Assembly (NCBI GenBank): GCA_964372495.1
Contig: CAYJQU010000002.1
Coordinates: 25,040-89,039 of the forward strand
Direction of reading: 5' to 3'
Source: an uncultured Gammaproteobacteria bacterium
Lineage (GTDB): Bacteria > Patescibacteriota > Microgenomatia > JAUYPR01
Length of the DNA stretch: 64,000 nucleotides
Both the position numbers and the translations under genes were made by a program. The notes beneath the pieces are model-generated. The model worked only from the letters and a program-made list of their open reading frames with translations. It did not search any database and had not been told where the DNA came from. This document shows, one piece after another, positions 2,905 to 62,485 of this stretch; the first letter of the stretch is position 1, and each line of letters begins with the position of its first letter.

Positions 2905-3025
2905 CATTGTGTTTCTGGCCTGTCTTTTTTCATCGCCCGATTGTACCAAATAGCATAAACTAAACGTCAACTAGTCGACAAAACTCTGCTATAGCACATT
3001 TTCGTCGGTCGTCCACTCCCTTGGG

Positions 3026-3931: not shown

Positions 3932-4068
3932 AACACTTCCAGTCCACAAACGGCGCATTACAACCAGCACAATTTTCTTAAACACCTGATAACGGAAGCT
4001 TTCAACAATCAGACTTCCTGAAAATGAACCTGCGATAGCAATGAAAAATAATGATGTAAAATACAGTT

Positions 4069-4404
4069 ATGGGCGTTGTGATTGTTGATGAAAAAGTTGC
4101 CCCAGAAGATCTTGTTATAGCACAAGAAGAATACGGGGAATATGTCAAGATTGTCATTGACATCGAAACAGAAGCAATGGCTATTGGGGGAGAGTGGCAT
4201 GCTGACGCCGAGAAAGAATTGCTTGAAGCAGGAAGTAAACAAAGTAACATGTGGGGAGGCGGAATCGATCTTACCTCCAAACGCATTGAGACTATTGCCC
4301 TCATTAACATACGACCTCGGCTCGGCAATGATAGCCAAGAAATTATTGATCCTAAAATCCGCCAGCGTTTCGTTACAATTGCCCGGAAAAAGTTTTGCTT
4401 ATGA
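4069..4404 (+). CDS. Hypothetical small acidic protein (111 aa)
   Basis: Long ORF in AT-rich DNA (about 42 percent GC by eye) with many D/E residues. Its TGA stop overlaps the ATG of the next ORF (ATGA). Confidence 0.45.
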   Translation: MGVVIVDEKVAPEDLVIAQEEYGEYVKIVIDIETEAMAIGGEWHADAEKELLEAGSKQSNMWGGGIDLTSKRIETIALINIRPRLGNDSQEIIDPKIRQRFVTIARKKFCL

Positions 4405-4667
4405 ATGTCGACATAGCCAATCTATCTGTCGACTTACGGAGAATCTCTTATTGGATCTATCGAGGTCGAACCGAGCTTGCTGACAAATTTCTAAATCAAT
4501 GTAAAGTAAAATATCGCACTATTCCTACACATATCGGTAATTATACGAACGTCTGGGATGAAGTAGAACGGATCCAGAATGCACAAAAAAAACAGATTGA
4601 GGGTGCAGAGCGTGCACTCACCCTTAGTCGGGTTCTGGAAATCTATTCACGCAATCATGCATCTTAA
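4401..4667 (+). CDS. Hypothetical small basic protein (88 aa)
   Basis: ATG at 4401 overlaps the upstream stop (ATGA coupling). K/R-rich and AT-rich. No motif recognised. Confidence 0.45.
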   Translation: MNVDIANLSVDLRRISYWIYRGRTELADKFLNQCKVKYRTIPTHIGNYTNVWDEVERIQNAQKKQIEGAERALTLSRVLEIYSRNHAS

Positions 4668-4718
4668 ATCAGAACGCTCGCTGCTATAGCTGTGAGCGAG
4701 CGCAGCGAGTCGAATCAG

Positions 4719-4789
4719 CTGCCGGGCTAGGATTCGAACCTAAATTACCAGGTCCAGAGCCTGGTTGCCTACCATTAGCAGACCCGGCA
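4719..4789 (-). tRNA. tRNA-Gln (anticodon CUG)
   Basis: Manual cloverleaf fold on the minus strand. The acceptor stem UGCCGGG/CCCGGCA has the U1:A72 pair typical of bacterial tRNA-Gln. D-stem UGCU/GGCA, anticodon stem CCAGG/CCUGG with loop CUCUGGA, T-stem/loop UUAGG-UUCGAAU-CCUAG. CCA is not encoded. Confidence 0.8.
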
Positions 4790-5016
4790 CTATAAGTTTA
4801 GAGATAACACCGAAAACTGATAAGCTTCTGGAAATATTGTACCTCATTTTTCTTCCGCAGTCTAATCGCCGTCTTCCTTACTTCCGAATGTAATCCAAGT
4901 AGCACAAGCGCATCGTTTACATCAGTAAGCAATTTGCGAATCCTATTTATAAATCATCAACAAGTAAAACAACTCCTGCTAAACCCTTTTTTCATAAAAC
5001 TGCCCCATTATGTATA

Positions 5017-6234
5017 ATGAGCGATATGGAAAGAATGCCGGGCCCTAGTGCTGACTGGGTGAGAAAAAGAAAGGGTGATAGAGTAAAAGTAGAAGTTGTT
5101 CAGGTCGACCCAAATACTGGAGTTACTACAATCTGGGCAAAACACTTGAAGTATTTTAGAGAATCAAGAATTGACCAACTTCCTCACAGTGGCTTATATC
5201 GCTGTATCTCCCGTTCTGCAAAGCCAGGAACAATTCCTGAACAACCCAGTTATGCAATCGAGGCGCATCACTCTGGAATCCATAAACATATAGCTTTGGA
5301 AAGAGCAGCTGATGGTTTAGGCTTAGGTTTAAAATTGCATATAATTGATGAATCAGAACCTAACCATTTTTTTGTAAACTATCAAGTCGACCATCTCAGA
5401 AGTATCGGGATACATCACAATTCGATGGATTTGGATGCAATTTACCAATCTTTAAAAGCTCGTCCCCTAGGTGCTAATCTTCTAGAGCTGGGAGAATTTT
5501 ATCGCAATACTGGTGCTGTTGCAACCTTTAACCCTTCTATGGGAGTAGTTGGCCCAGAGCTAGATGGGGACCAAAGGCTATATCTTGATTGGGCTCAATC
5601 TGAAACCAGATGGAAGAGAGACAAAATTATGAAAAATTGGACTGATGAGGAAAGAGCTAGAGTTATAATTGAAGTTGGTACAATCGTAAAAGGCGCTGTG
5701 ACGCAACATTTGGGACAAGATTTTCAACAACCTGATTTGGAGACATTAACTTCTGGTTTGATGGATGCTGTGTTAGTAGATTTACCTTTTGATTTTGATA
5801 CAAAAGAGGGAACTCTAGATAGATTAGCTGTTATTGCTGATTTAGTAGTTAGAAATACCGCCATGCTTGTTACAGCTAACAGACAAAAGTATGCGTATTT
5901 GAGTGATTTTACTGCGAACTTATATTTCTCACCACCAAATCGCGAAGAAATTGGTATAGAGATTGAAGATTTTGAATATGAGCCGATCCACAGAGACAGT
6001 TTAAGATTTGGAGAACGGTATAGGTATGAAGATTATGATTATTTAGTTACCAGAGATAATTCAGGCAGAGTAACTACTAGAATTGTCCGCATATTAGGAA
6101 AAACAACACCGTTACAAGTAACTGTCCGCGAGGAAATTGATTTGGAGGCATTAACCAAACTCTTAACGACTCCTGAAAGTATTGGGTGGGAGAAAGCATT
6201 AAGGGTTGCTGATATAGAACTTCAAAAAGGTTAA
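5017..6234 (+). CDS. Hypothetical protein (405 aa), AT-rich orphan gene
   Basis: 1.2-kb uninterrupted ORF in roughly 38-42 percent GC DNA, flanked by roughly 58 percent GC DNA. A TATAAT box at 5002-5007 precedes it. The start could be ATG 5017 or ATG 5035, the latter after GGAAAG. It has a His-rich segment HHSGIHKH and no recognisable domain. Confidence 0.6.
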   Translation: MSDMERMPGPSADWVRKRKGDRVKVEVVQVDPNTGVTTIWAKHLKYFRESRIDQLPHSGLYRCISRSAKPGTIPEQPSYAIEAHHSGIHKHIALERAADGLGLGLKLHIIDESEPNHFFVNYQVDHLRSIGIHHNSMDLDAIYQSLKARPLGANLLELGEFYRNTGAVATFNPSMGVVGPELDGDQRLYLDWAQSETRWKRDKIMKNWTDEERARVIIEVGTIVKGAVTQHLGQDFQQPDLETLTSGLMDAVLVDLPFDFDTKEGTLDRLAVIADLVVRNTAMLVTANRQKYAYLSDFTANLYFSPPNREEIGIEIEDFEYEPIHRDSLRFGERYRYEDYDYLVTRDNSGRVTTRIVRILGKTTPLQVTVREEIDLEALTKLLTTPESIGWEKALRVADIELQKG

Positions 6235-9716: not shown

Positions 9717-11067
9717 CTAAGCGAATGTCGACACGCTCCATATCACGGGGAAATAGCGATGCTTCTCGGATATTTTTTAATTTGAGTATTTGCATGGTGA
9801 GGCGCTCGAGTCCAAAGGAAAACCCTCCCTCTGGAGGCATCCCGTACCGAAACGCCTGTAGATACAGCTCAAATGACTTCGGATTCATGCCACGCGACTC
9901 TATAGCAGCCACTAGTTGCGCGTAATCGGTGACCCGGAGGCTGCCGCTTGCCCACTCCAGTCCTCTACAGAGAAGGTCGCAGCTTAACGAGTACTCCGGC
10001 TGCTCTGGATCGGGATGGGTGTAGAATGGCTTTTTGGCAGTAGGAAAGTGCGTAACGGTGACAAAATCAGATCCATGCTCCCGCAGACTCCACGCGCATA
10101 AATCTCGCTCGTCCTCTGGAGTTAAATCTGGCTCTTTTCGATTGTCCCGCCTGGTTTTTTGGTACAGAAGTTCCTGTGCTTGCCTGAGAGTCAGGCGTGG
10201 AATTTTCTTACCAACCACAGGAGCTGTTACCCCAAACTGGACCAGGATTTCTTTACACGCTGTATTCACTCCCTCTACCAAGTCGATTGCTGTTTGCTCA
10301 AGCTCGTCGAGCAAGTTTTCAAAATGTTCGATAAACCCAATCTCTATATCCAGTTGGGTAACCTCAGAAAGATGTCGGGTGGTCACTGAAGGCTCAGCGC
10401 GGTACGCGTGCGCAATCGTGAACACCCGCTCAAACACTCCCACCATGATCTGTTTGTATAGCTGCGGACTTTGGGCAAGATATGCTTCTTTCCCATAATA
10501 GGAAAGCTCGAAGACTTCTGCGCCTCCCTCAGTCGCGGACGCGACGATGGTAGGTACCACAATTTCCGTACAGTCTCTGCGCAACGCTGACTCTCGGAAG
10601 CTGGTAAGCAGTGCCGCTTGCAGCGCAAAAATAGGACGGACACTTGAGTGTCGCAAGCTGAGGGTGCGATAATCAAGTAGTGTAGGGAGGGTTACTTCAA
10701 GACTCTTGCCTCCGGTGTCGAAGGGTAGACTTTCTGCTTTGGCAATGAGCCGTAGCTCTTCGGCTTGCAGCTCCACCGTTCCCGTAGCTAGTTTCGGGTT
10801 TACCAATTTCTCGGGGCGCTCCTTGACCGTTCCCGCCACGAGCACAACGTCTTCGGGCCGCAGACTCCCAGCCTGCTCTCCACTCAGTACAACCTGGAGA
10901 ACCCCGGTGCGGTCACGAAGATCTACAAACACAATCTTCCCGTGGTCCCGTCGTACTTGTACCCAGCCGTATACTGCAACTTTTTTGCCCACACGCGCAA
11001 GCGTCTCCCGAGCATACATGCGTTTCACAAAGGTCATTGTACCAAAACACCCCGTATTGACAAGCAA
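9706..11067 (-). CDS. aspS: Aspartyl-tRNA synthetase, archaeal/eukaryotic-type (AspRS2; could be non-discriminating)
   Basis: Class II aaRS with an N-terminal OB fold (GWV..RDHGKIVF), a QSPQLYKQ motif and a GGFSFGLERL motif 3. Its roughly 450-aa length fits the archaeal-type AspRS/AsnRS. Confidence 0.8.
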   Translation of the reverse strand: MLVNTGCFGTMTFVKRMYARETLARVGKKVAVYGWVQVRRDHGKIVFVDLRDRTGVLQVVLSGEQAGSLRPEDVVLVAGTVKERPEKLVNPKLATGTVELQAEELRLIAKAESLPFDTGGKSLEVTLPTLLDYRTLSLRHSSVRPIFALQAALLTSFRESALRRDCTEIVVPTIVASATEGGAEVFELSYYGKEAYLAQSPQLYKQIMVGVFERVFTIAHAYRAEPSVTTRHLSEVTQLDIEIGFIEHFENLLDELEQTAIDLVEGVNTACKEILVQFGVTAPVVGKKIPRLTLRQAQELLYQKTRRDNRKEPDLTPEDERDLCAWSLREHGSDFVTVTHFPTAKKPFYTHPDPEQPEYSLSCDLLCRGLEWASGSLRVTDYAQLVAAIESRGMNPKSFELYLQAFRYGMPPEGGFSFGLERLTMQILKLKNIREASLFPRDMERVDIRLDEK

Positions 11068-14560: not shown

Positions 14561-15913
14561 ATGGCAAACAACGCGCTTCCGCTTCCAGCGTCCATCCGCA
14601 ACGTTTTTACTACTCTTGCCGACAACGGGCACCGAGGATTCGTGGTGGGCGGGGCGGTGAGGGATCTTTTGACTCAGAAGGAGCCGCACGACTGGGACTT
14701 CGCAACCGACGCGAGACCTGACCACATTCTAGGTATCTTCCCCGGCAGTTTCCTCAATAACCAATACGGGACTGTTGGGGTGCCACTTCCTCAGCCAATC
14801 GGTAATGCAGAAATAACCACATTCCGGAAGGAAGGAAAGTATCAGGACTTTCGACACCCGAGCACGGTCGAATGGGGCCGCACCATCGAGGAAGATCTTG
14901 CGCGCCGAGATTTTACCATAAACGCGATGGCTGTCGGCCAAGACGGGCAGGTCGTTGACCCATACCATGGACGGGAAGACCTGGAGGCTGGCTTGATTCG
15001 AACGGTGGGAGATCCGCATACACGCTTTTCCGAGGACGCACTGCGGCTACTGCGGGCGGTGCGGCTGTCCGTTGAACTTGGCTTCACTATCGAACCAGCC
15101 ACCCTCCTTGCCGTACAAGAAAATGTTCACCTGATACAACACGTCTCGGGAGAGCGCATCCGCGATGAGCTCCTCAAGATGCTTGCTGCCCCAACCGAAG
15201 CGTCTGCCAACAGCTTCTTCTTGCTCCGGGAAGTTGGACTTCTTGCACATATACTACCAGAATTGGAGCACGCGTTTGCGCAACCGCAGGCGCGGCACCA
15301 TACACATGACGTTGGCACGCATCTCGTGCTCTCTTTAAAACACTGCCCCTCACCGGACCCCATCGTCCGACTTGCAACGCTCCTACATGATATTGGCAAG
15401 CCGGCAGTCGCTCGTAAGGAGGATAACTTGATTACGTTTTTCAACCATGAGGTGGTCGGAGTGCCCATCGCCCGTCGCATCCTAGATCGTTTGCATGTTA
15501 CCCGCAAAGATCGAGATCGCATTCTCAATCTTATCCGGTGGCACCAGTTCACAGTGGATGAGCACATTACCGATGCTGCGGTTCGGCGTTTCATTCAGCG
15601 GGTGGGTGTGGAAAACGTCAACGATATGCTTGACCTGCGCATTGGGGACCGATTGGGAGGTGGGTGCCGGGAAGCGGAAAGCTGGAGACTTAGACTGTTC
15701 AAAAAGCGTATTTGGGAGGTTCAGCATCCACCTCCGACAGCGGCAGATCTGGCAATCGACGGCCACGACGTGATGCGCGAGTTCAACCTGCAACCCGGAC
15801 CACAGGTTGGGAAAATCCTCAATACGCTGTTCGAAGAAACAGTAGACGACCCGAGTAAGAATAACCGAGAATACTTACTGCAGCGCCTGAAGGAGTTGAA
15901 AAAACACGAGTGA
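14561..15913 (+). CDS. cca: CCA-adding tRNA nucleotidyltransferase with HD domain
   Basis: GGAVRD..DWD polymerase-beta head motif plus an HD domain (HTHDVGTH...LLHDIGK). Confidence 0.85.
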   Translation: MANNALPLPASIRNVFTTLADNGHRGFVVGGAVRDLLTQKEPHDWDFATDARPDHILGIFPGSFLNNQYGTVGVPLPQPIGNAEITTFRKEGKYQDFRHPSTVEWGRTIEEDLARRDFTINAMAVGQDGQVVDPYHGREDLEAGLIRTVGDPHTRFSEDALRLLRAVRLSVELGFTIEPATLLAVQENVHLIQHVSGERIRDELLKMLAAPTEASANSFFLLREVGLLAHILPELEHAFAQPQARHHTHDVGTHLVLSLKHCPSPDPIVRLATLLHDIGKPAVARKEDNLITFFNHEVVGVPIARRILDRLHVTRKDRDRILNLIRWHQFTVDEHITDAAVRRFIQRVGVENVNDMLDLRIGDRLGGGCREAESWRLRLFKKRIWEVQHPPPTAADLAIDGHDVMREFNLQPGPQVGKILNTLFEETVDDPSKNNREYLLQRLKELKKHE

Positions 15914-15935: not shown

Positions 15936-16436
15936 CTAACTAGTGGAAGATGCCGCTTGGAAACGAGCCATCAACCGCAAGCCGCCATCGAATATCTCTT
16001 GTATCGGCCGGGAGATAGTTTCACTGACGCGGACAAATCTACCGGGGGCTATTCGAGCATCGACACGCCATCGTCTCATAAACGTTCCCTCAAGAACAGC
16101 TGCGGGGTCTCCTGCAGAAACCCCTTTCCCTGTACTGTTCACTCTAGCCACCAATATACACTCGATCAGACTAGCAATAGCCAGCTCCACCTCGAGCTCC
16201 CGAACTTTCTTGTCATACGGAACAACTTCATTGTACATGCCCGCACGTTTCATCCCATTGCTTTGCTTCCTACAGTCATTCAAGAGCTCCCTGATTTCTA
16301 CTATGACTGCAGCAAGGCCTCCTAGAGTCGCGTCAGGAAATTTAGGACTGGGATACTCCGACACAACCGCTGGTCTCGCCCGAACTTCTCTCACGAGCGC
16401 TGACGGATCAGGAAATTTTCGTTCATACCGCGCCAT
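15936..16436 (-). CDS. Hypothetical protein (166 aa)
   Basis: ORF with a palindromic element about 80-110 nt upstream of its start. No motif recognised. Confidence 0.4.
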   Translation of the reverse strand: MARYERKFPDPSALVREVRARPAVVSEYPSPKFPDATLGGLAAVIVEIRELLNDCRKQSNGMKRAGMYNEVVPYDKKVRELEVELAIASLIECILVARVNSTGKGVSAGDPAAVLEGTFMRRWRVDARIAPGRFVRVSETISRPIQEIFDGGLRLMARFQAASSTS

Positions 16437-16516
16437 AGGTATTAGACAAAGATTATATCAGAAATCTGACGGCACACTATTAAAATGTCGACCCTCCGCT
16501 TGCTACTGTCCAACAT

Positions 16517-16544
16517 TTGTTCAATATACTGATATATTGAACAA
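16517..16544. repeat. 28-bp perfect palindrome TTGTTCAATATA-CTGA-TATATTGAACAA (copy 1 of 2 in the window)
   Basis: Its 26-bp core is identical to the copy at 26846-26875. It ends 4 nt before the secF stop codon, a position typical of REP-like elements. Confidence 0.7.
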
Positions 16545-16547
16545 TCA

Positions 16548-17438
16548 TCATGCAGTGCGTGTTGCGCGCTCGTGCCATACGACCAATAGCGGTGCCGCGT
16601 TGAAGATGCTCGAGTAGGTACCAGAAGTAATGCCTATCAGAAGTGCAGCTATAAACCAGCGGATGGACGCACCACCGAACAGAAGCAGTGCCAAAAGGAC
16701 TAGCAGTACCGTCAGTGAGGTCATCAACGACCGGCCGAACGTCTGCACAATGGAGTCGTTTACCACCTGGGCAAACGGTAAGGTAATGTGCCGTCTTATG
16801 TTCTCCCGAATACGATCAAACACCACAATCGTATCGTGCACCGAAAACCCGATGACCGTAAGGAGGGCGGTAACAAACAACGCATCTACCTCTGCATGAA
16901 AGTAATACCCGAGTATAGCCATCACCCCCACCAGCACTAACACATCGTGACAAAGGGCCACAATCGCACATACGGCAAAACGGATGGAAGAGGCAGGTTT
17001 GGGTACACTGCGAAACGCCCACGCGATATACAACATAATTGCAAGCGAGGCAAACAGAAACGCAAGCAGTGCATTTTTCTGCAGCTCCTTACCAATGGTG
17101 GGTCCCACTGTTTCAAATCGCAGCTGCTTCACAGCACCATAGCGACTGCTCAAATCAGCAGCCACCTCGTTCCTCTTGGCTTGATCAATCACTTTCGTGC
17201 GCACGAGTACTTCCTGCTTACTGACTCGCTGAATACTGCTGACGTCTACCCTACGCTGCCGAAAGATCTCTTCTATACCCCCTGTATCGGCCGGCTGCTC
17301 AAACTGCAGCTCAAGCAAGCTCCCTCCGGTAAAGTCCATCCCGAGCCGCACGCCGTACACGATAAGAAAAAACAATCCGGGCAAGATGACGACGCCAGAG
17401 AATACAAAGTACCAATACTTAAAACGCAGCAGGTTCAT
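16548..17438 (-). CDS. secF: Protein translocase subunit SecF
   Basis: About 6 transmembrane segments and SecF-like sequence (GMDFTGG..., C-terminal RND-like bundle). Confidence 0.9.
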   Translation of the reverse strand: MNLLRFKYWYFVFSGVVILPGLFFLIVYGVRLGMDFTGGSLLELQFEQPADTGGIEEIFRQRRVDVSSIQRVSKQEVLVRTKVIDQAKRNEVAADLSSRYGAVKQLRFETVGPTIGKELQKNALLAFLFASLAIMLYIAWAFRSVPKPASSIRFAVCAIVALCHDVLVLVGVMAILGYYFHAEVDALFVTALLTVIGFSVHDTIVVFDRIRENIRRHITLPFAQVVNDSIVQTFGRSLMTSLTVLLVLLALLLFGGASIRWFIAALLIGITSGTYSSIFNAAPLLVVWHERATRTA

Positions 17439-17770: not shown

Positions 17771-18831
17771 GCGTTGCCTGCAACATGGACATCGCTAATA
17801 CCAAGATCAACCGGGCCTGGCGGAAGCCTGTTTTCCTGATCATCAACAAATAACACAATCACACCCCGTTTTTGCGCCCCATCTTCCAGTTTCATATAAT
17901 CCATCAGCTCCGGAGAACCTCCAAACTTCTTACCTGTCCAGTCCGCCGGTCCTGCATCGCCAATCACTGCGATGACAGCTCTTTTTGTCGTAGGATCAAT
18001 GACAATTACTTTACGCCACTTAAACCAGGTATACAACTCATTGGTGCGCTCTTGCCATCCGGGGGCAAGAAAGGTCTGTGCAGCAATATACCACTTTTCC
18101 CGCTGAAGTGCCTGAGGGGTAAGCGCTGCTTTACTCGTGGCAAAATATCCCCAGGCAGAAAGCCCTGGCGCAATCCCCCTGCCAAGCACACGCACTTGGT
18201 TTCCTATTCCCGATGCGTGCTCGGCCAATGAGTCCCCAGGATATCTGTATAAATGCTGTTCTGCCCCAATAAGACCATAGGTCACGTTCAACCGATTCTC
18301 CTCAAGCTCAGCAGCAACTGGCACCGACACTATTTTTGAGAGCAGTTGTTCGAGCGTGGCCTCCTCACCTGGCGTCAGTGCATGGGTAAGGGTAGGCAAT
18401 ATCTGAGCCAGTGCTGCCTTTGCCTCATCTGGGCTTGCCTGGGCAAGCGTGGGGATAGGCACCACCGTCCTCCTCGGATCATACCCAATAGTGGAACGGA
18501 GCAGTGGGGGGCCGCGGATAGGCGGTGCTTGGCCGGTCACGGTGACTGGAGCAACGATTGCAAGCGTACCTATGAGTGCGGTTGCAATCACTTTACGATT
18601 GAGCGCAGCGCGAATATCACCAAACGTCCAGCCCTTTTGCGCAAGATAGGCAAAAAATTCTCGATACCTGCGCCGCAGCTTCCGCTCCTGCTTTTCAATG
18701 AGCTTATCAAGGTGCGAAAGGATGTCCTGGGCGCCTTCGCTGAGGACCCGCTCGCTTCGGCGAAACAAGCGCCGACTGACCCGTTTCCATCTTTTGATTC
18801 GTCGTAGTACTTCCGGCAGACTCTCATCCAT
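17767..18831 (-). CDS. 3D/DPBB-domain protein (MltA/YuiC/RlpA-like putative cell-wall-binding or lytic protein)
   Basis: C-terminal KVIVIDPTTKRAVIAVIGDAGPADWTGKKFGGSPELMDYM resembles the 3D (three-Asp) double-psi beta-barrel signature. N-terminal basic region plus a transmembrane segment. Confidence 0.5.
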   Translation of the reverse strand: MDESLPEVLRRIKRWKRVSRRLFRRSERVLSEGAQDILSHLDKLIEKQERKLRRRYREFFAYLAQKGWTFGDIRAALNRKVIATALIGTLAIVAPVTVTGQAPPIRGPPLLRSTIGYDPRRTVVPIPTLAQASPDEAKAALAQILPTLTHALTPGEEATLEQLLSKIVSVPVAAELEENRLNVTYGLIGAEQHLYRYPGDSLAEHASGIGNQVRVLGRGIAPGLSAWGYFATSKAALTPQALQREKWYIAAQTFLAPGWQERTNELYTWFKWRKVIVIDPTTKRAVIAVIGDAGPADWTGKKFGGSPELMDYMKLEDGAQKRGVIVLFVDDQENRLPPGPVDLGISDVHVAGNA

Positions 18832-20225
18832 TACAGCACCCGTAGAAATGCTTTCAGTAATGTCTTCGTCACTGTTAAAGCGGTAAACATCGATACGAGT
18901 ATTCCTATGGCAAGGGTTAAGGCAAATCCACGCACCAGGCCGCTCCCAAAGTTAAACAGGATAAAGGTAGTTATCAGGCTACTGACGTTTGAGTCGCGAA
19001 TCGAACTCCACGCCCGCTGAAAGCCAAACTCCAAGGCGCTCGCCTTTCCTTTTCCCCACCGAAGCTCCTCTTTCATCCGCTCAAAAACTAAAATGTTGGC
19101 GTCAACGGCCATGCCGATACTCAAGATAAAGCCCGCAACGCCGGCAAGGGTGAGTGTGACCGGCAAGAGCTTAAAGATCGCAAGCGTCGTGAGCGCGTAC
19201 AGAAGCAAAGCGATACTCGCTATCAGCCCCCACCTGCCATAATAGAGAATCATAAACACAAAGAGGGTACTAAGCCCGATTGCGCCAGCTACGACACTCT
19301 TTTGTACTGATTCGTTGCCGAGGGTAGCTCCCACCTGCCGCTGTTCCACTACTGAGATAGGAACCGGCAATGCTCCTGCGCGCAGCTGAATCGCAATCTC
19401 CCGCGCACGCTCGGCGCTAAAATTGCCGGTGATAACGGCCCGGCCTGAGGGGTCCCCGGCAAGTTCGGGCTGAATAACCGGAGCTGGGTTCATAAGCGGC
19501 TCGCTATCCAGAAACATCGCCAAAGGCTTATTAACATTGCGCTGTGTGATGTCCGCAAATTTCTTGGCGCCCTCAGGGGAAAACTCAAGCGCGATCACCC
19601 ATTTGCCACTACGCTGGTCAATCTGAGGCTCGGCACGTTTGAGATCTGCTCCTGAAAGCCCGGTAGATTTGGTGGTTTCCAGCGTCACCCACGTGTCACC
19701 GAATAATTCTGTAAATGCAGATGGGCTCGCCCCGTCGGGTTGAAGCAAGCTCGCTGCAGAGGTAGCTGTCTGAGCGGAGGTGCTTGACTCCCGAAACTCA
19801 AGCTGCGCGGTCTTGCCCACGAGCGCGATCGCCTCGTCCACATTCTCAACACCTGGCAGTTCAACGAGCACTCGGTACTCCTCGCCCACTTTCGAGGACT
19901 GGACGGCGGCCTCGGACACACCAAAGAAATTTACCCGCCGCTCAAGCACCGCCTTTGCCGACTCGAGTGCATTGTCTCGATCCTCTACCGGGATCTTCTG
20001 CATGTCTGTAGCAAGGGCGAGATGTACGCCGCCCTGCAGGTCCAGTCCCCTGCGCAGGGAAAGATCCCTATAGATTCGGTTGCCAGCAAACGTCAGGTCC
20101 ACGTTATAGCCGCCAATGCTGTCAATGCGCACCGGCCCGATCTGGTAATTGATAGGGATCTTTGGAAGATCAATACTAATCACCAGAACCGCGAGGACGA
20201 GAATGAGCCACAGCGATAAGCGCAT
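18831..20225 (-). CDS. secD: Protein translocase subunit SecD
   Basis: N-terminal transmembrane segment, a large periplasmic domain and a C-terminal 6-transmembrane bundle with SecD-like sequence. Confidence 0.9.
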   Translation of the reverse strand: MRLSLWLILVLAVLVISIDLPKIPINYQIGPVRIDSIGGYNVDLTFAGNRIYRDLSLRRGLDLQGGVHLALATDMQKIPVEDRDNALESAKAVLERRVNFFGVSEAAVQSSKVGEEYRVLVELPGVENVDEAIALVGKTAQLEFRESSTSAQTATSAASLLQPDGASPSAFTELFGDTWVTLETTKSTGLSGADLKRAEPQIDQRSGKWVIALEFSPEGAKKFADITQRNVNKPLAMFLDSEPLMNPAPVIQPELAGDPSGRAVITGNFSAERAREIAIQLRAGALPVPISVVEQRQVGATLGNESVQKSVVAGAIGLSTLFVFMILYYGRWGLIASIALLLYALTTLAIFKLLPVTLTLAGVAGFILSIGMAVDANILVFERMKEELRWGKGKASALEFGFQRAWSSIRDSNVSSLITTFILFNFGSGLVRGFALTLAIGILVSMFTALTVTKTLLKAFLRVL

Positions 20226-20253: not shown

Positions 20254-21255
20254 TTACTTTGAGGAGGGTGGGGGAGCGAGGTAATCTTGTAAGGTTAGGG
20301 CACCGTGCGGCCTTTCAAGTTCTCGTAGAACTGCCCTGCCTATCTCACCTGAAAAGTACGCTTTATACAAAGGGAGACGGCCACGCACCGGGTCTGGCTT
20401 GAATCCCAGTTTTGCTGCGATCCTTGAAATCCAGCCTAATTCTGGCCCAGCAGGAGCACAAGGAAAATTAACCCGCCAGATGTCACGTTGGTCAGTTTGT
20501 CTGGTAAACTCCTCATTTTCTCGTCCTACATAATCCAGAATAAATTCCTTGCCAAGCGGCTTCTGGATAAGGCACTTCGCAACAAGTCTATCAAACGCTA
20601 CGCCGAGAGCAACCTCTGACTTTAATCTTTCGTTAGCCTCCATATAACACAGATGTACCCTAGTTCCTGCCACGACGATTATATCCGCTATATCCGCACG
20701 CGGAACGTCTATGAACCGTTTGGCTGCGAGCACTTTTCTATACTGACGCGCGGGCACTCCTACCTCAAGAGAAACAGACCAGCGGGCCGAGAGAAGTGCT
20801 TCGTAGCACTGGTCCATTTCCCACTGTAAGGCAGCGGGTAGGGAAGCAAGTTTCTGCGCACGCGGCCAATACGGGATACTCATTCCCAAAATCTCCTCCG
20901 CAAGTGTCGCCTCGGCAAGTGCACGGTGAGCCGCATCGCCTGTCGGAAACTGATAATTCTCTAGTACTCCATACAAAGCTTTTCCACTACGTGTAATCTG
21001 AAGTGTCATCCTGTTCTCGCAAGAAACTGTCCATTCTCCCGGTCGCACTGTCACTGCCGGCCAGACTACTGCATCAAAGACTGTCTTTGGAAGGAGAAAA
21101 ATCTCGTCGGGATGAAACATCGCCTCTTGGTTTATCTGCAATACGGGATAGCGTCTGCGTAGAAACTGTCCCAGCCCGTATGTTGCCTGAACAGTCAACT
21201 GCTTGGCCGTACTATCGTAGTGTGCAGCCTGTATTTCCGTTCGATCGGTAAGCAT
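20254..21255 (-). CDS. Hypothetical protein (333 aa)
   Basis: Long ORF on the same strand as secD. No motif recognised. Confidence 0.45.
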   Translation of the reverse strand: MLTDRTEIQAAHYDSTAKQLTVQATYGLGQFLRRRYPVLQINQEAMFHPDEIFLLPKTVFDAVVWPAVTVRPGEWTVSCENRMTLQITRSGKALYGVLENYQFPTGDAAHRALAEATLAEEILGMSIPYWPRAQKLASLPAALQWEMDQCYEALLSARWSVSLEVGVPARQYRKVLAAKRFIDVPRADIADIIVVAGTRVHLCYMEANERLKSEVALGVAFDRLVAKCLIQKPLGKEFILDYVGRENEEFTRQTDQRDIWRVNFPCAPAGPELGWISRIAAKLGFKPDPVRGRLPLYKAYFSGEIGRAVLRELERPHGALTLQDYLAPPPSSK

Positions 21256-21355: not shown

Positions 21356-24300
21356 ATGAGACGGCACTACCATACACTCATCGTCGGTATTACCCTTCTC
21401 GGCTCTCTTCTGTGGCCTTCTTGCATTTTCGCGCAAGAGCCAACTTGGTCATCGCCGGTTAGTCTCACGGGAAATCCTACCAACAGAAAGGGCGAACCGT
21501 CCGTCGCAGTGGACCGGTACGGGACGGTCCATGCCGTCTACGTAGACAACTTCCGCGTGTACTATCAAAAACGGCCCGGCAGCACGTGGGCTGCGCCTAC
21601 CGACGTGACTAGCACCTCTGGTTTTCCTACAAGCACCGACTATTACTCACCGAAAATTGCCATCGGCATAAACAACATCCCGCACCTCCTCATCACGGGG
21701 GCCCCGCGCGGCCCCGGAACTGCCGGCATCTATCACACGTCGTACAAAGATGGATCATGGCAACCCGCAGTCCGAGTAAGCCGTTCGCATATGAATGGCT
21801 ATATGTACAGACAGCCGCTCGCGATCGGCGCGGACGGCACCGTGCATGCAATCTGGAAGGAAAATCTCGGGTGGGCAGGGGACCAGGTGTTTTATTCCAA
21901 GAAGGTGGGGAACGTATGGAGTGAGCCCGTACAGGTTACCGGCAACGAGGACGAGGCATTGCAGGCAGTGGCGCTCTTGGACGGCGATACCGTGCGCTTT
22001 GTGTTTGCCACTTACCCAACTAAGCTCATTCGCGAGCGGCGGCTGGTGGGGGCCACCTGGCAAAATCCCACCACCCTTTTCTCCAACGTCTCGGTCAATA
22101 ACGACTCTTTCACAGCAGCATTCGGCGTAAACGGCGGTATGACGATTGTCTGGGTGAAGGTAGAAGGGAGTACCCATACCCTTGAGGCTAGCAGCTTGAG
22201 TGGATCGGCGTGGTCTGCTCCCACTGCCATCTTTACCGAATCGCCACCGCGGTACGCGCGCGAGCCGATCGCAAAAGTAGACGACTACGGCCAAGCGCAC
22301 CTTAGTTTCTTTGTCGACCAGTGGCAGGATGATCAGACTGATCGTATCCTCTACATGCATCAAAGTGCGACGGGATGGACACAAGCAGTTGCGTTGTCTT
22401 CTGGAAATGACGCGGATGCCCCGTTTATTGTGGCCATGGATAAAGTATACGCAGTCTGGCGACAGCGCATATCCGGCTCTTTATACGATATCTACTTTAC
22501 CGCAAGTAGCGAGATTGCGGCGCGGACTCCGGTGGTGCTGGTTCCCGGGATTGCGGCTTCGTGGAATTGGGGAGTGATGTCCGACCTTAATCTTTCCGAT
22601 ACTAACTGGATGTGGTCACCCACGACTGATAAGGGTTGGGAGGGGCTTATCACCGCGCTTGAGGCGGCCGGGTATCAGAAAGATAAGCACTACTCGATCG
22701 CATTCTATGACTGGCGCAAAACGAATGACTGGTTGGACAATGACCCCGATGCAGCAAAGGCTGCCAAGGTGTACTTGAAGGCTGCCATAGACAAGGTCAA
22801 GGCTGCAAACCCAGGAGTTTCCAAAGTTCATGTGGTCGCGCACAGTATGGGGGGACTGGTGGTACGCAGTTACGTTGAGTCGGGAGAGTACCGGGGGGAT
22901 ATCGATCAAGCAATCTTCGTTGGGACCCCAAATCAAGGTGCAGCGTTTTCATATTACATGTGGGGTGGGGCAGAGGTACCACCGAGTTGGGATTTGGTAA
23001 GTAGAGCAGTAGTCAAGGTCTACATGTTGTATCTAAGACGGCTCAAAAATACAGACGATCTTAATATAGTCAGAGGCTTTACAAAATCTATAAAAAACTT
23101 GCTCCCAGTCAATTCAAACTACCTAGCCGTCAACGGAAATTCCCTACAGTGGGACTTACTGTCTGAGGTCAACACGTTCCTCAAAACTACCTCGCCCTCT
23201 GATAGCATAAGCTCTCGATTTGCTGCCAAAGGAGTGCGACTGTCGACCATTCACGGGACCGGTGTAAATACCGTCCACCAAATGTCGGTCGAGCCGTACC
23301 AAGCTAGTTTTGGTAGCCTGTGGAAAGACGGTAAGCCGACCGGGGACATCACCACGATCAACGGCGACGGGACAGTAACTGAGCTAAGCGCAAAGATTAC
23401 GGGGGTAGAAAGCTCGAGCTTGATCTCAAAGCATGCGCGCTTACCCAGCGACGCTGCCGAAATCATCATGCGCAAACTCGGCCGCGTGCATACGCTAGCC
23501 ACTATCGCACTCCCATCTTCAATCCTAACCGTATGGACCCATCCAGTCACCGACGTAACTGTGGAAGATCCGGACACTAATACGCCAGTGGGCACCAAGC
23601 TTGAGGAACGAGCAGATGGGGGATTCAAAGTAATAACGGTGCCAGAACCCAAGAAACCGAAGTACCGCGTGAAGCTAAAAGGGCAGGGGACCGGGAAGTT
23701 CAAAGTTGGGAGCGACCTGCACACAGAAACAAGCTCCACCCCAACGGAAAAAGAGGGCACTGCAAAGCAGGGTGTAACGATCTCTTACACTCTGGCAGTC
23801 GCCACCACCAGTGCGACTCCCCTCTTACTTTCTTCTGACGATACCAAAGCGCCGCAGACGACGCTTGCTAGCTCTGGCTCCACCGTAACCCTCACTGCCC
23901 AAGACGATAATGAGGGAACCGGCGTCGGATCCACTGAGTATAGTTTTGACAGCATCACGTGGTCTGCTTACACATCTCCCTTCACAATAAGCGGCACAAC
24001 GACTATTTACTACCGATCCACAGATCTTGTGGGAAATATGGAACCCACTAAATCTTCAAGTGTCACTGTGTCCTCTACAACCACAAGTTCCCAGAGTTCA
24101 ACCTCCACTTCCTCTACCTCGACGGCGCAAGTTCTCGGTGCGCAAGCGCAAAAACAAGCCGAGGCAGTAACCAACACGGTAAAGCACGTACCTGCTCAGG
24201 TTGGCAGAGCTTTAACCTCGGTTATAGACGACCTTTTAGGTAACGAGCCGCAGCGTGAGGAACCCACGGGCCAGCAACAGCCACCCAACCGTCCCGAAGT

Positions 24301-24445
24301 GAAAGCGGAAAGCACCATTAACTTCTTTGCTTTCATGCGTAATCCCGTTGTAATTGTCGCAGTCGTCACACTTACCTTGGCCGGGGGAGCGGTGGGAATT
24401 TCAGTGGCTTCAGGAAGCGGGTTCTTTGGAAAGTTTAAGTTATAA
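21356..24445 (+). CDS. Large cell-surface multidomain protein: signal peptide, BNR/Asp-box-like beta-propeller region, LipA-like alpha/beta-hydrolase (lipase/esterase), OmpL47-type Ig-like domain, Ser/Thr-rich stalk and C-terminal transmembrane anchor
   Basis: Signal peptide MRRHYHTLIVGITLLGSLLWPSCIFAQ. SYKDGSW-type Asp-box-like motifs. VVLVPGI...HVVAHSMGG nucleophile elbow (GXSXG), very like Bacillus LipA. The TVTLTA.DD..G.GV..TEYS.D...W..YT.PFT..GTTTIYYRSTDLVGN.EP motif of OmpL47-type Ig-like domains. SSTTTSSQSSTSTSSTST low-complexity stalk. C-terminal hydrophobic helix. Confidence 0.7.
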   Translation: MRRHYHTLIVGITLLGSLLWPSCIFAQEPTWSSPVSLTGNPTNRKGEPSVAVDRYGTVHAVYVDNFRVYYQKRPGSTWAAPTDVTSTSGFPTSTDYYSPKIAIGINNIPHLLITGAPRGPGTAGIYHTSYKDGSWQPAVRVSRSHMNGYMYRQPLAIGADGTVHAIWKENLGWAGDQVFYSKKVGNVWSEPVQVTGNEDEALQAVALLDGDTVRFVFATYPTKLIRERRLVGATWQNPTTLFSNVSVNNDSFTAAFGVNGGMTIVWVKVEGSTHTLEASSLSGSAWSAPTAIFTESPPRYAREPIAKVDDYGQAHLSFFVDQWQDDQTDRILYMHQSATGWTQAVALSSGNDADAPFIVAMDKVYAVWRQRISGSLYDIYFTASSEIAARTPVVLVPGIAASWNWGVMSDLNLSDTNWMWSPTTDKGWEGLITALEAAGYQKDKHYSIAFYDWRKTNDWLDNDPDAAKAAKVYLKAAIDKVKAANPGVSKVHVVAHSMGGLVVRSYVESGEYRGDIDQAIFVGTPNQGAAFSYYMWGGAEVPPSWDLVSRAVVKVYMLYLRRLKNTDDLNIVRGFTKSIKNLLPVNSNYLAVNGNSLQWDLLSEVNTFLKTTSPSDSISSRFAAKGVRLSTIHGTGVNTVHQMSVEPYQASFGSLWKDGKPTGDITTINGDGTVTELSAKITGVESSSLISKHARLPSDAAEIIMRKLGRVHTLATIALPSSILTVWTHPVTDVTVEDPDTNTPVGTKLEERADGGFKVITVPEPKKPKYRVKLKGQGTGKFKVGSDLHTETSSTPTEKEGTAKQGVTISYTLAVATTSATPLLLSSDDTKAPQTTLASSGSTVTLTAQDDNEGTGVGSTEYSFDSITWSAYTSPFTISGTTTIYYRSTDLVGNMEPTKSSSVTVSSTTTSSQSSTSTSSTSTAQVLGAQAQKQAEAVTNTVKHVPAQVGRALTSVIDDLLGNEPQREEPTGQQQPPNRPEVKAESTINFFAFMRNPVVIVAVVTLTLAGGAVGISVASGSGFFGKFKL

Positions 24446-25451: not shown

Positions 25452-27608
25452 TTAACTATCTGCTACAATCTTCCTAAAAAGATACAGGGCTGTCAATGCG
25501 CTTACCGCAAGCCCTAGCTTAAACGTCCATGGATCATAGATAAAAGTGACCGTGTGCTCCCCTTCTGGTACCTGCACGGCACGGAACGCGATATTGGCGG
25601 GGTAAATAGGCACTTCCCTGCCATCCACACTCGCTTTCCATCCGGGGTAGAAGGAATCAAGCAGCACCAACCACGCATCCTGAGTTGCATTCGCCCGTAC
25701 TTCTACCCGCTCCGGCCCTCTGACCAACACCTCGGCTTTCAGGGGCTTAACCTCTAATCCTGGTAGGGGTTTAACCCCTAATCCGCTGGATTCGAGGATC
25801 ACACCGCGAGTGTAGTCAAAGCCGGATTGCAGAAGCGCAAGGGCTGACGGCGCGTCGGGCACGAATTGGGCGTGAGGCACAAGGTACGCCCGCGGCAAAG
25901 CTGTGCTCCACGGCCGCACACCACCAGGATACTCCTGGTCCAGGATTGCTCGTGTTGCGGTCAAATCGAGAAACGCGCGTGCTCGGTCAGGTTCTTGCAG
26001 CAACAAAAAATAATCCTGGCGATTCTCAAGGTAGGCGGAGGCAAACAGTTCATAGCGGCGTGGTCGCAGCACCTCATATCCCCGCGGATCGGCAAGTCCG
26101 TATAACATGCCGATGTTCGGGGGAAAGTAGCCGTCACGGGAAATGACTCTGCCGTCGCCTTGCAATGCCTGCAACCTAACAATTTCCGCAGTCACCGAGT
26201 ATACGTACTCCGGCTGGATACTGGGGTAGTGCTTGGAAATCCACACGCTCCCGTCAGCAATGACCAGAAGGCACAATCCCGCTCCCACCATCCATCCCCA
26301 CCTTGCAAGGGGACGCTTTGCAAACGCAAGAGCCGCACATCCTGCGATCATAAACACCAAGAAATAGTGCACGCGATGATTGTTGGCCATACGCATGATC
26401 GGAAGGAAGTTCACTAGATGGAGCACTGGCGCCTCAAACGCCACTCCTACGCTCAGAAGCCCAAGTGCGAGCAGTATCTTGGCTCGTACGTCCGTAAGTA
26501 ACCATCTCAGCGACAGAAATAAGGTTATTGTCGCCACAATACTCACATAGCCAAGCTGCTCGTTGTAATTGGTAAACGGCAGCTCATAGTGTCCCAACGC
26601 TGGACTGCCAAACGCGTACGGAGAGGTGAGCGCTTTGAGGGTGGGCACGTACAGTCTGAGGTGCTCCCAGTTTCCTAACAACCCAAATGCGATACTGTCA
26701 CGCACTGGGGTCTGTCCCAAATAGCTTCTCCCTACCTCTGATGCACTGCTCTGCAAGATGTATTCTGCCATAGGAAATAACAGCGGCGCTACCAGCAGGG
26801 TACCGCACACTATGCCCCCAATGAGCGTCCGCAGACCACGCGACGCATGTTCAATATACTGATATATTGAACATGACTCACGAATGCTTAGTCGCACGTT
26901 CGTACCACTACACCACAAACGTAAAGTGCCATAGATCGTGCTAAACGCAATGATCTGAAACGATGTCTCTATATGGCCGGGAAGCCAGACCAGCGCCACC
27001 GCGCCGGAAAGCACAAGTAAGGAATACACCCCTCCAGTAATCACCCGCTCTATCGCCCATAGCACAAGGGGGAGCCACAACAGCACCGCAGTCACTGGCC
27101 AGATCGCCCAGGCAACCACAAACTGTGCGGTCAGTACCACAAAACCGCCTAACAGAGCCGCCCAAAAGTGATTGGTCAAACGCCTCAACCACAGGAAGGT
27201 AAAAAATCCACACAGCGTCAGTCGCACTATTACCAAAAATAACGGTACGTGCTCAACGGGAAGGGGCAGTATCGCAGCGAGCACTATCGTGGGATCCAAA
27301 AACCCCGACTGCCCATTGGCTACATAGGGCATCCCGCCCCATGTATAGGGATTCCACAGCGCGAGTTCTCCCGAACGCCAACGCTCCAGGTTATACGCAA
27401 GGTAGGGATAAATTAGCGCTGAAACGTCGCCCAGTAAAAAATTGCGAGAATCTGGCAAGTCCGCCGGGCGGTGCAACGTCCATGGGTAGACATCATAGAA
27501 ATGTACTGCCGGAACGAGTGCCAATCCCTTACTGAGTGGTTGCCAGAAGTAGAAACACGCAACCAATGCATACGCGCCGAGCGCCGCAAGGGCCGGAACT
27601 GCTTTCAC
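25452..27608 (-). CDS. Large polytopic membrane protein, YfhO/ArnT-like (putative membrane glycosyltransferase family)
   Basis: 718-aa ORF with at least 12 hydrophobic helices and a C-terminal soluble domain. It contains an in-frame 30-bp palindromic repeat that encodes SCSIYQYIEH in a hydrophilic loop. Confidence 0.55.
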   Translation of the reverse strand: MKAVPALAALGAYALVACFYFWQPLSKGLALVPAVHFYDVYPWTLHRPADLPDSRNFLLGDVSALIYPYLAYNLERWRSGELALWNPYTWGGMPYVANGQSGFLDPTIVLAAILPLPVEHVPLFLVIVRLTLCGFFTFLWLRRLTNHFWAALLGGFVVLTAQFVVAWAIWPVTAVLLWLPLVLWAIERVITGGVYSLLVLSGAVALVWLPGHIETSFQIIAFSTIYGTLRLWCSGTNVRLSIRESCSIYQYIEHASRGLRTLIGGIVCGTLLVAPLLFPMAEYILQSSASEVGRSYLGQTPVRDSIAFGLLGNWEHLRLYVPTLKALTSPYAFGSPALGHYELPFTNYNEQLGYVSIVATITLFLSLRWLLTDVRAKILLALGLLSVGVAFEAPVLHLVNFLPIMRMANNHRVHYFLVFMIAGCAALAFAKRPLARWGWMVGAGLCLLVIADGSVWISKHYPSIQPEYVYSVTAEIVRLQALQGDGRVISRDGYFPPNIGMLYGLADPRGYEVLRPRRYELFASAYLENRQDYFLLLQEPDRARAFLDLTATRAILDQEYPGGVRPWSTALPRAYLVPHAQFVPDAPSALALLQSGFDYTRGVILESSGLGVKPLPGLEVKPLKAEVLVRGPERVEVRANATQDAWLVLLDSFYPGWKASVDGREVPIYPANIAFRAVQVPEGEHTVTFIYDPWTFKLGLAVSALTALYLFRKIVADS
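26846..26875. repeat. 30-bp perfect palindrome CATGTTCAATATA-CTGA-TATATTGAACATG (copy 2 of 2)
   Basis: Shares its 26-bp core with 16517-16544. The outermost arm positions differ from copy 1 but change on both arms, so the palindrome is preserved. It lies in-frame inside the YfhO-like CDS. Confidence 0.7.
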
Positions 27609-47647: not shown

Positions 47648-48933
47648 CGCTTCAAAAATCCTTCATAGCTCCGCATGATGAGCATCGCCTCAAGCTGCTT
47701 AGTCGTCTCCAGCACCACGGATACGACAATAAGTACTCCGGTGCCGCCGACCAGAATATCGCTGATGCCGGTAACGAGCTGAGCGATAGCCGGTAGTATT
47801 GCAATACTCGCTAGAAACAGTGCTCCGGCAAGCGTGATTTTGGTCAAAATGGTATTCAAGTACGCCGCGGTCGCCTGCCCTGGACGGATCCCTGGGATGA
47901 ATCCGCCGTACTTTTTGATCTCATCGGCAATCTTCACCGGATTAAAGGTCACCGCGGTGTAAAAATACGTAAAGCCGACTACCAACAGAAAGTACAGCAC
48001 GTTATACGTAACGCCGTTGGGATTAAAGAGCTGATCTATCACACGAGCCGCATTGGCCAGCACCGGCTGCGGCGCAGCCTTAAAATACTGCGCCAGCATC
48101 GATGGCAGCAATATCAAAGAAACCGCAAAAATAATCGGGATAACGCCTGCCTGATTTAGGCGCAGCGGCAAGTGTGTTGCCTGGCCTCCTACTACACGAT
48201 TACCGCGAACCCGCTTTGCATAATGAATAGGAATACGCCGCTGTGCCTCGCTCATCACTACGATTGCAGCTACCACCACGACCGTAAGGAAGAGTAGAAT
48301 AAACACTCCGGTAAGCTGCTCCTGACTAAAAGCATACAGCTTGCCCGCAGCAACGACAGGCAAACGCCCCACAATGCCGGCAAAGATCAACAGTGAAATC
48401 CCGTTCCCAATACCGTGCTCGGTGATCAGCTCTCCCATCCACATGAGTAACATCGTCCCGCCGGTCATGGTGGCAAGTATGGCAACGAGTGCTATCGGGT
48501 GAGTACTACTGATAATCTGCTGGTTGCGCAGCAGCACATACATTCCGATTGCCTGGAGTACCGCAAGGGGTACCGTAAGGACGCGGGTGTATTGATTGAT
48601 TTTCTGGCGGCCAAATTCCCCTTCTTTGGACAGTGCTTCGAGCTTGGGGAACACCATAGTCAGCAGTTGCATAATAATCGAGGCGTTGATATACGGATTG
48701 AGTCCCAAACTGATAATGGAAAAATTGATGAGTGTGCCACCTGAGAAGATATCCAACAGTCCAAGAAGCTGATTTTGCGCAAAAAGCTCCTGCAGCGCGA
48801 ACCGATTTATGCCCGTGACCGGAATGTGCGTCAGCAAACGAAAGAGGATGAGCATCCCTGCAGTAATAACGAGTTTCCTTCTCAACTCAGGGATACTCCA
48901 GGCCTGTCGAAAGGTAGCCAGGATTGCGTTCAT
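47644..48933 (-). CDS. secY: Preprotein translocase SecY
   Basis: 10 transmembrane segments, SecY sequence and its position in the spc operon. Confidence 0.9.
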
Positions 48934-62404: not shown

Positions 62405-62485
62405 ATACCTATCCTCACGGAAGTGGCAAACCATGTCAATAGCTCTTATCCGCTTAAATGATTTAAATGAACAGAATTAGGAAAT

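Follow-up and report, generated by a model that had tools for sequence, protein, structure and literature searches.

A palindrome translated in frame within a yfhO gene matches the predicted operator of a TrpR-like regulator in a probable Patescibacteria genome

The palindrome and its gene context

The window analysed here is a stretch of 64,000 nucleotides from contig CAYJQU010000002.1 of GenBank assembly GCA_964372495.1 (positions 25,040 to 89,039), and the element under study is a short perfect palindrome lying inside its yfhO gene. This gene is the fourth of a tightly packed minus-strand cluster, which codes for a DUF4446 protein, a DUF3048 protein, a 192-aa ArsR-like winged helix-turn-helix protein, the YfhO-like membrane protein, an AhpC/TSA-like protein and a 132-aa membrane protein. 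A first-pass annotation of the window had described the palindrome as a repeat translated within a hydrophilic loop of a 718-aa membrane protein, and had offered two explanations for it: the in-frame insertion of a small palindromic element of the type described in Rickettsia, or the presence of two genes separated by an operator. The features concerned are the following.

26846..26875, no strand assigned: palindrome in yfhO, 30 bp, perfect, with 13-bp arms and a CTGA spacer
25452..27608, minus strand: yfhO, 718 aa, GTG start, YfhO-family (GT-C type) membrane protein, single gene
26847..26918, minus strand: expanded segment, 24 codons (L231-H254, LWCSGTNVRLSIRESCSIYQYIEH), absent from the ortholog P0002, with the palindrome at its 3' end

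The palindrome reads CATGTTCAATATA-CTGA-TATATTGAACATG, with two fully complementary arms in a 13+4+13 arrangement around a core 26-mer, TGTTCAATATACTGATATATTGAACA, located at positions 26848-26873. It corresponds to codons S245-A255 of the minus-strand open reading frame (ORF) 25452-27608 and is translated as SCSIYQYIEH(A). Both the palindrome, in every detail, and its in-frame peptide within an open 718-aa ORF were therefore as first described. Dinucleotide-preserving shuffles of the window gave 0 matches to the 30-mer and 0 to its spacer-free 26-bp pattern, thus ruling out a chance origin; the latter pattern occurs twice in the window itself. An assembly artefact was also ruled out, since an independent assembly obtained from another sample (L003, run ERR3478686) carries the identical palindrome in a yfhO gene differing at 1 of 2157 nt. 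As read from the sequence, three of the six reading frames are open through the palindrome.

A promoter and terminator scan of positions 26600-27100 retrieved neither a promoter-like nor a terminator-like site at the palindrome. The stem is A+T-rich and there is no T-run, so that an intrinsic terminator (a G+C-rich stem followed by a T-run) was discarded, the scan being negative at this palindrome and at its second copy in the window (see below). At the RNA level, the 90 nt around the palindrome are predicted to fold at -31.8 kcal/mol (z = -3.3) with a 13-bp stem. No Rfam family matches the palindrome, and neither a copy nor any meaningful match was found in the phage, plasmid and viral collections. 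In the searchable library, a literature search found no paper with the palindrome sequence in a relevant context and none on a TrpR-like regulator in Patescibacteria, the top-ranked papers containing no mention of YerC or of a Trp repressor.

The palindrome-bearing loop of an intact YfhO protein

The assignment of the 718-aa ORF to a YfhO-like membrane protein was borne out by its match to PF09586 (59 bits, cut-off 28.5; E = 3e-16), a domain present in all 104 homologs found. Its close orthologs, P0002 (57% identity, 704 aa) and P0003 (46% identity, 695 aa), are single ORFs found in the same neighbourhood and aligned over 97-98% of length, and the palindrome is absent from both. Comparison with orthologs, which the first-pass annotation had proposed as a check, showed that a variable, tolerant extramembrane loop has been expanded in frame in this lineage by the segment that bears the palindrome: the closest ortholog, P0002, lacks 24 residues, and the loop of P0003 is about 15 residues shorter than that of the window protein. 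The interval H212-P279 measures 66 aa in the window YfhO, 41 in P0002 and 52 in P0003, with a median of 50 over 37 family members and values of 63-119 residues in a few distant ones.

AlphaFold modelled YfhO as one fold (predicted local distance difference test, pLDDT, 88.7; predicted template modelling score, pTM, 0.92), in which a helical hairpin (H213-241 / H248-272) projects from two hydrophobic helices and has residues 245-254 at its tip, in agreement with the hydrophilic loop described earlier. The sole stretch of the model with pLDDT <50, residues 239-242, falls in the same hairpin tip. No operator-type palindrome of any known kind was found at the orthologous yfhO loci (L001 and L002), indicating that the yfhO site is a lineage-specific acquisition. 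A likeness between the window loop peptide IRESCSIY and the L002 loop peptide RRELRSMY is weak and without counterpart at the DNA level, and it was not used.

These data bear directly on the proposal that an operator divides the 718-aa ORF into two genes. The palindrome is indeed of operator type, and this part of the proposal stood; against two genes are the continuous frame, the single-ORF orthologs of 695-704 aa, the one predicted fold and the lack of a promoter-like site at the palindrome. An internal start or ribosome-binding site beyond the palindrome, which had been suggested as something to look for, was not found: the ATG within the right arm is out of frame and leads to a stop, and the next in-frame methionine, M281, has no Shine-Dalgarno-like sequence, as read from the sequence. 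As far as sequence analysis reaches, the two-gene reading is refuted and retains practically no probability; yfhO is one intact gene despite the palindrome.

Identical copies in the window and beside a regulator gene

The term repeat was also justified, given that an identical 26-mer lies in the same orientation about 10.3 kb away, in the following context.

16518..16543, no strand assigned: second window copy, identical 26-mer in the same orientation, within a 28-bp palindrome (16517-16544)
16548..17438, minus strand: secF, with its stop codon abutting the second copy
18831..20225: secD, between the two window copies
15936..16436, minus strand: 166-aa ORF of no known family, downstream of the second copy

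The second copy is intergenic, 4 nt past the secF stop codon and 80 nt ahead of the start of the 166-aa ORF on the same strand, which is possibly its regulated target. An extended -10-like motif (TGATATAAT) was seen by eye about 61 nt beyond it, and a promoter scan of positions 16300-16800 found nothing around the copy. The corresponding RNA is predicted to fold at -24.6 kcal/mol (z = -2.0).

Public collections were then scanned for the exact pattern GTTCAATATA-N4-TATATTGAAC. Two exact copies, 431 bp apart, were found on a contig (L007/L015) of GCA_947084935.1, a metagenome-assembled genome (MAG) labelled 'uncultured Coxiellaceae', where they flank a gene here designated P0110. The 26-mer is thus present four times without a single difference, the asymmetric CTGA spacer included: two copies are in the window and two flank P0110. 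Positions 26847-26874 of the window match the copy at the P0110 promoter (L015 9973-10000) at 28 of 28 positions. Similarity between the copies ends at the 26-28-bp core and the flanks are unrelated, with no extended similarity or target-site duplication found around them. Neither degenerate copies nor half-sites (up to 5 mismatches in the 22 arm positions) were found in the 84 kb of window plus L015. The exact-pattern scan of the species-representative genome collection retrieved no further copy on the contigs of this MAG. The two window copies were likewise not among its matches, the window being apparently masked there, so that four copies is a lower bound that depends on MAG completeness. 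Two of the four overlap coding sequence. In all four, CTGA appears on the strand whose GC skew is negative, and the cumulative GC skew is monotonic across the window.

Beyond the 26-mer, position +/-14 is complementary in all four copies while the bases themselves differ (T/A at window 16517/16544, A/T at 26847/26874, A/T at L015 9973/10000 and G/C at 10404/10431). The chance of such complementarity is about 0.4%, and it is not seen in the L004 lineage described below; one possible reason is selection favouring a hairpin or cruciform.

The contig carrying P0110 almost certainly comes from the genome of the window. Two runs (ERR3478686 and ERR4904391) both contain P0110 and several window genes at 100% identity, the tetranucleotide correlation of L015 with the window is 0.93 (0.90 between the two halves of the window), and the ribosomal gene sets of L015 and the window are complementary. 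A mobile sequence shared across phyla, with the 'Coxiellaceae' contig as an unrelated genome, was considered and was overturned by the co-occurrence in two samples and by the correlation of 0.93. In the window, the genes for S5 and L15 overlap with no L30 between them (48930-49831), an absence known as a hallmark of Patescibacteria (candidate phyla radiation, CPR). Together with the taxonomy of the regulator family (see below), this suggests that the label 'Coxiellaceae' of the MAG is probably wrong and that the genome of P0110 and the window is probably that of a Patescibacteria (CPR) bacterium.

P0110, a predicted TrpR/YerC-like regulator

P0110 is a protein of 146 aa for which structure modelling predicts the TrpR/YerC fold. 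Its matches to Pfam Trp_repressor (PF01371, E = 6e-5) and to NCBIfam TIGR02531 are both below the curated cut-offs. A family profile of 36 sequences matches PDB entries 3frw, 3kor and 3g1c at 9e-8 to 3e-6, and the AlphaFold model (pLDDT >90 over residues 11-100) has the same three entries as best PDB matches (target-normalised template modelling score, TM-score, 0.75-0.83), after which come E. coli TrpR entries, complexes with the operator among them. Homologs were gathered by profile search, a single-sequence search having given only 3 proteins; the family comprises 518 clusters at 50% identity and 757 proteins at E up to 1e-8, and its named members belong mostly to Patescibacteria, e.g. Levybacteria and Saccharimonadales. 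Some members carry gammaproteobacterial labels in public records, which are probably wrong. No TrpR-like gene was found inside the window.

The copy upstream of P0110 (L015 9974-9999) overlaps a TTGACA-16-TATACT promoter (11/12 positions) and abuts the ATG, covering the -10 box as well as the likely transcription start; judged from the sequence, this is the classical layout for autorepression. The downstream copy (L015 10405-10430) lies inside the last 12 codons of P0110 (…VQYTDILNTKK), 45 nt ahead of a tRNA-Trp gene (L015 10475-10548).

L015 also carries a 166-aa ORF without Pfam match, located between rplK and rplA (15308-15808). No paralogy was found between it and the 166-aa ORF that follows secF in the window.

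Palindromes around the regulator gene in other lineages

Both flanks of the regulator gene were inspected in nine Patescibacteria lineages. The arrangement palindrome-gene-palindrome was found in eight of them, with one palindrome at the promoter and its copy at or just past the stop codon, the exception being L012, where only the upstream palindrome is present. The flanked regulators are 129-146 aa long, with the TrpR fold and no other or catalytic domain. The overlap between the regulator's own copy and its promoter seen in L015 recurs in L004, L023, L025 and L027. The palindromes read as follows.

L004/L010/L013: upstream TGTTCAATATA-ATGA-TATATTGAACA; downstream TGTACAATATA-CTGA-TATATTGAACA
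L023: CAGTATACTAGTATATTAGTATACTG, short form CAGTATACTAGTATA...
L022: CATACGATATATCGTATG, four copies
L024: ATCAT-N10-ATGAT
L025 and L026: TGTATAATAAGTTAGTATATTATACA
L027-L036: TATCATATATCGATATATGATA

Each lineage has its own palindrome and a differing predicted recognition helix, but the correspondence is not one-to-one, as L012 (21% identity) keeps almost the same half-site. In L004/L010/L013 the site is near-identical to that of the window, though the protein is only 58% identical to P0110 and the GC content is 35% as compared with 51%. In L025 and L026 the 26-mer is identical, including an 8-nt spacer, in the face of regulators only 45% identical; such 26/26 conservation indicates strong purifying selection on the whole site, so that exact copies in the same genome are not necessarily of recent date. 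The four L022 copies of CATACGATATATCGTATG are gathered within 1.5 kb (808-1485), three of them ahead of the TrpR-like gene and the fourth behind it, with arms extending to 14 and 19 bp.

The regulator gene follows a tRNA-Thr/tRNA-Tyr cluster in L015, L004/L013, L025 and L026, and it is followed by tRNA-Trp in L015, L025 and L026. The position kept beside tRNA genes in distant lineages argues for vertical inheritance and disfavours a mobile cassette made of palindrome, gene and palindrome. The downstream operators and tRNA-Trp genes of L025 and L026 are located as follows.

L025: downstream operator 10395-10420; tRNA-Trp 10458-10529
L026: downstream operator 10425-10450; tRNA-Trp 10530-10603

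The gap between downstream operator and tRNA-Trp gene is about 40-80 nt in the three lineages (L015, L025 and L026), and in L025 a TGTTATAAT promoter for tRNA-Trp would have a -35 region that overlaps the operator. The occurrence of a TrpR-like protein beside tRNA-Trp may be more than coincidence.

The comparison among lineages also bears on two readings that involve no repressor. In the first, the yfhO and secF transcripts would each form a hairpin at the palindrome, with an influence on mRNA stability, on the formation of the 3' end or on the pausing of ribosomes. The predicted folds of both transcripts, the position of the secF copy 4 nt past the stop codon and the several copies that closely follow stop codons in other lineages are consistent with it. 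At the regulator gene, however, transcription should start within the palindrome, so that only half of it would be transcribed; moreover, the arm mismatches of the downstream L004 copy are not wobble-compatible, there is no U-tract, the stem is not G+C-rich, the terminator scan was negative and no Rfam family matches. An RNA-level role is accordingly judged quite improbable.

In the second, the palindrome would be a recombinase target of the dif/lox type, the two window copies permitting excision of 10.3 kb. They are identical, in direct orientation and share the same asymmetric spacer; the 28 bp can be parsed as 11-6-11 equally well as 13-4-13, and position +/-14 is complementary in all four copies. 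On the other side, the interval contains the essential secD and secF, which argues against its excision, and excision would truncate yfhO, as read from the sequence. The palindrome sequence varies by regulator lineage while the layout stays constant, and no recombinase gene is linked at any locus, save an unrelated integrase in L024. Furthermore, the window has no GC-skew switch and there are four copies, as opposed to the single terminus site expected for dif. Only a slight chance is left to this explanation.

Orphan copies away from the regulator gene

Copies away from the regulator gene ('orphans') were also found in other lineages. In L025, a third exact 26-mer (3678-3703) is located 6.3 kb from the regulator gene; the stop codon of a peptidase S9-like gene lies 27 nt before it and, 184 nt further on, a GDSL-lipase gene begins on the same strand. 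In the lineage with a CTAG spacer (L008, L009 and L011), the genes on either side of each copy are co-directional; two of the copies follow murD and an mfd-like gene, respectively, and the third precedes a small Cys-rich ORF. In L024, recX contains a perfect 22-bp palindrome (TATCATATATCGATATATGATA, 20335-20356) that is read in frame (KYHISIYDS); its sequence is that of the L027 operator core and also fits the L024 pattern ATCAT-N10-ATGAT. No obvious change of protein length was seen by eye in this RecX against typical RecX sequences. As judged from these sequences, predicted operator-type palindromes of this regulator family are thus found inside coding sequences in at least two lineages.

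Copies other than that in yfhO are often found within 0-30 nt of stop codons. Such placement agrees with an insulating or roadblock role and, to the same degree, with the copy serving the next gene as a distal upstream site.

A probable orphan operator in a coding loop

In our best reading, the yfhO palindrome would be an extra, orphan exact copy of the predicted operator that flanks P0110. We consider it fairly probable, on the strength of the sequence comparisons, that the TrpR-like regulator binds it and that binding has some regulatory effect, for which a roadblock inside yfhO would be the most economical form; that such a roadblock would be measurable is much less certain. A roadblock is the most economical function because the yfhO site has neither a promoter nor a nearby partner site. 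According to this model, P0110 would bind all four identical sites, the one in yfhO being occupied by a dimer or by tandem dimers. The bound protein would oppose elongating RNA polymerase within the long minus-strand cluster and, as long as the regulator is DNA-bound, would lower the full-length transcripts of yfhO, of the AhpC-like gene and of the gene for the 132-aa membrane protein. The tolerance of the loop would allow the protein to stay intact while the DNA carries a full predicted binding site.

Several observations weigh against an orphan operator with regulatory effect. Neither window copy overlaps a promoter-like site, so that the logic of the regulator gene is not simply transferable to them, and the yfhO loci of L001 and L002 are without an operator-type palindrome. 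A perfect 26-28-bp site in a coding loop is implausible by point mutation, and a copy-and-insert step is needed. The copy count may be affected by its dependence on an exact pattern (20 specified bases) in one possibly incomplete MAG, and the assignment of window and regulator contig to one genome, though strong and almost certainly correct, is indirect. Finally, the orphans adjoin unrelated genes in different lineages, with no conserved regulon, which would fit neutral or selfish dispersal as well.

Dispersal of this kind would amount to a tiny copy-and-paste palindrome (a 'mobile operator' or a hairpin resembling repetitive extragenic palindromic, REP, sequences) settled in a permissive loop with no regulatory role. 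It would account for copies that are all exact with similarity stopping at the 26-28-bp core, for the absence of the site from orthologous yfhO loci and for orphans beside unrelated genes in different lineages; with three of six frames open through the palindrome, in-frame survival is not unlikely, and a regulator gene flanked by its own repeats recalls the genes of REP-associated tyrosine transposases (RAYTs) flanked by REPs. Conversely, only four copies were found in the genome, with no degenerate relics in 84 kb and no copies in viral, phage or plasmid collections. The flanked gene codes for a TrpR-fold DNA binder without catalytic domain and is syntenic beside tRNA genes across lineages, and the 26/26 conservation of the site at 45% regulator identity points to selection and not to the drift of a selfish repeat. 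On balance, neutral or selfish dispersal appears unlikely.

A role at the chromosome level, where the sites bound by the TrpR-like protein would form a barrier to replication or transcription or an organising site, as known for Tus-Ter, RTP-Ter and ParB-parS, was also considered. The sites are long, and their conservation is exact and extends to the asymmetric spacer; one lies over the protein's own promoter and another at its 3' end, the orphans are found at gene ends and inside ORFs, and all four copies have CTGA on the strand with negative GC skew. This orientation argument, however, concerns four sites, and two of them belong to the regulator gene itself; the monotonic GC skew of the window gives no sign of an origin or terminus, the sites are very few, and the protein has the predicted fold of a classical repressor responsive to small molecules. 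We therefore regard a chromosome-level role as improbable.

Returning to the orphan operator, a broader version of it would hold that in Patescibacteria the conserved TrpR-like protein and its long palindromes belong to one system, in which the sites are copied into new locations, in-frame positions among them (yfhO, and recX in L024), and act as roadblocks at gene ends and within genes. This generalisation is speculative and, as a whole, rather unlikely to hold. If true, it would represent a device for protein-dependent termination or insulation in small genomes, possibly tied to tRNA-Trp expression.

With these considerations, a palindrome that looked isolated is now linked to an uncharacterised Patescibacteria-wide TrpR/YerC-like regulator. 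The predicted operator of this regulator can be read from the flanks of its own gene, which makes regulon prediction possible in a group with almost no experimental genetics. The exact copy of the predicted operator is carried in frame in the loop of an intact membrane enzyme, with recX of another lineage as a second case, suggesting that the overlap of a coding sequence with a regulatory site can come about through insertion instead of gradual change. That such sites recur directly behind stop codons and beside tRNA-Trp leads to the idea of transcription insulation in very compact genomes.

Other features of the window

An ORF of about 392-402 aa without Pfam match (61226-62434, minus strand) lies between rpsG (S7) and fusA (EF-G), interrupting the usually uninterrupted str operon, and is also present in an independent contig (L019). 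Two imperfect palindromes, at 2976-3007 and 4675-4698, share the core CTGCTATAGC (2 matches as compared with 0.14 expected); one is between divergent genes and the other is about 20 nt from tRNA-Gln (4718-4789), and they may represent another operator family. The stretch 4001-6000, which includes the tRNA-Gln gene, has a GC content of 0.41 as compared with about 0.52 elsewhere. The gene at 21356-24445, the only long one on the plus strand in the minus-strand block of about 15.9-30 kb, codes for a protein of 1029 aa whose N-terminus is signal-like and which has an LCAT/PGAP1-like lipase domain.

Comparison with known systems

Rickettsia palindromic elements are a mobile family of about 100-150 bp present in tens of copies. 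The yfhO palindrome shares with them the in-frame position in a protein-coding gene, the absence from orthologs and the location in a tolerant surface loop, and to this extent the first explanation offered for the palindrome stood. It differs in that only 26-28 bp are common to the copies, four copies were found and the same sequence also flanks a regulator gene, so that a mobile element of the Rickettsia type fails on element length, conserved flanks and copy number. With REP/RAYT systems the likeness consists of short palindromes found mostly at gene ends and of one gene flanked by two cognate copies. These systems were ruled out, since the flanked gene, which is syntenic, codes for a TrpR-fold protein and not for an HUH/Y1 transposase, and the palindrome has a very low copy number. 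Tus-TerB, RTP-Ter and ParB-parS likewise have long, near-identical sites both at the protein's own gene (one of them autoregulatory) and inside unrelated ORFs; the present sites differ from them in the fold of the protein, in having no visible relation to an origin or terminus and in being almost fully palindromic.

P0110 shares with E. coli TrpR (acting at the trp, aroH and trpR operators) and with YerC/YecD the predicted fold as well as an autoregulatory operator over the promoter, and the ACTAG found in the operators of some lineages is the core of the E. coli trp operator half-site. It differs from TrpR/YerC in its extra C-terminal helix and basic tail, in sequence scores below the curated thresholds, in the 26-bp site and in the second copy at the 3' end of the gene.

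Operators inside coding sequences are known either as auxiliary sites, such as lac O2 in lacZ and gal OI in galE, or as roadblocks, such as the CcpA cre, PurR and CodY sites in ORFs, and a repressor site in a coding sequence is not categorically new. As in these cases, the yfhO palindrome is a dyad-symmetric putative repressor site translated as codons, the regulator of which also has a primary site at a promoter. Unlike them, it is an exact 28/28 copy of the promoter operator and not a weaker variant, and it sits in a lineage-specific in-frame insertion, its effect here being a predicted one. Its primary operator, moreover, lies on another contig, making loop formation very unlikely. The closest functional analogues of the yfhO site are thus the operators inside coding sequences, and the closest protein relatives of its predicted regulator are TrpR and YerC/YecD.

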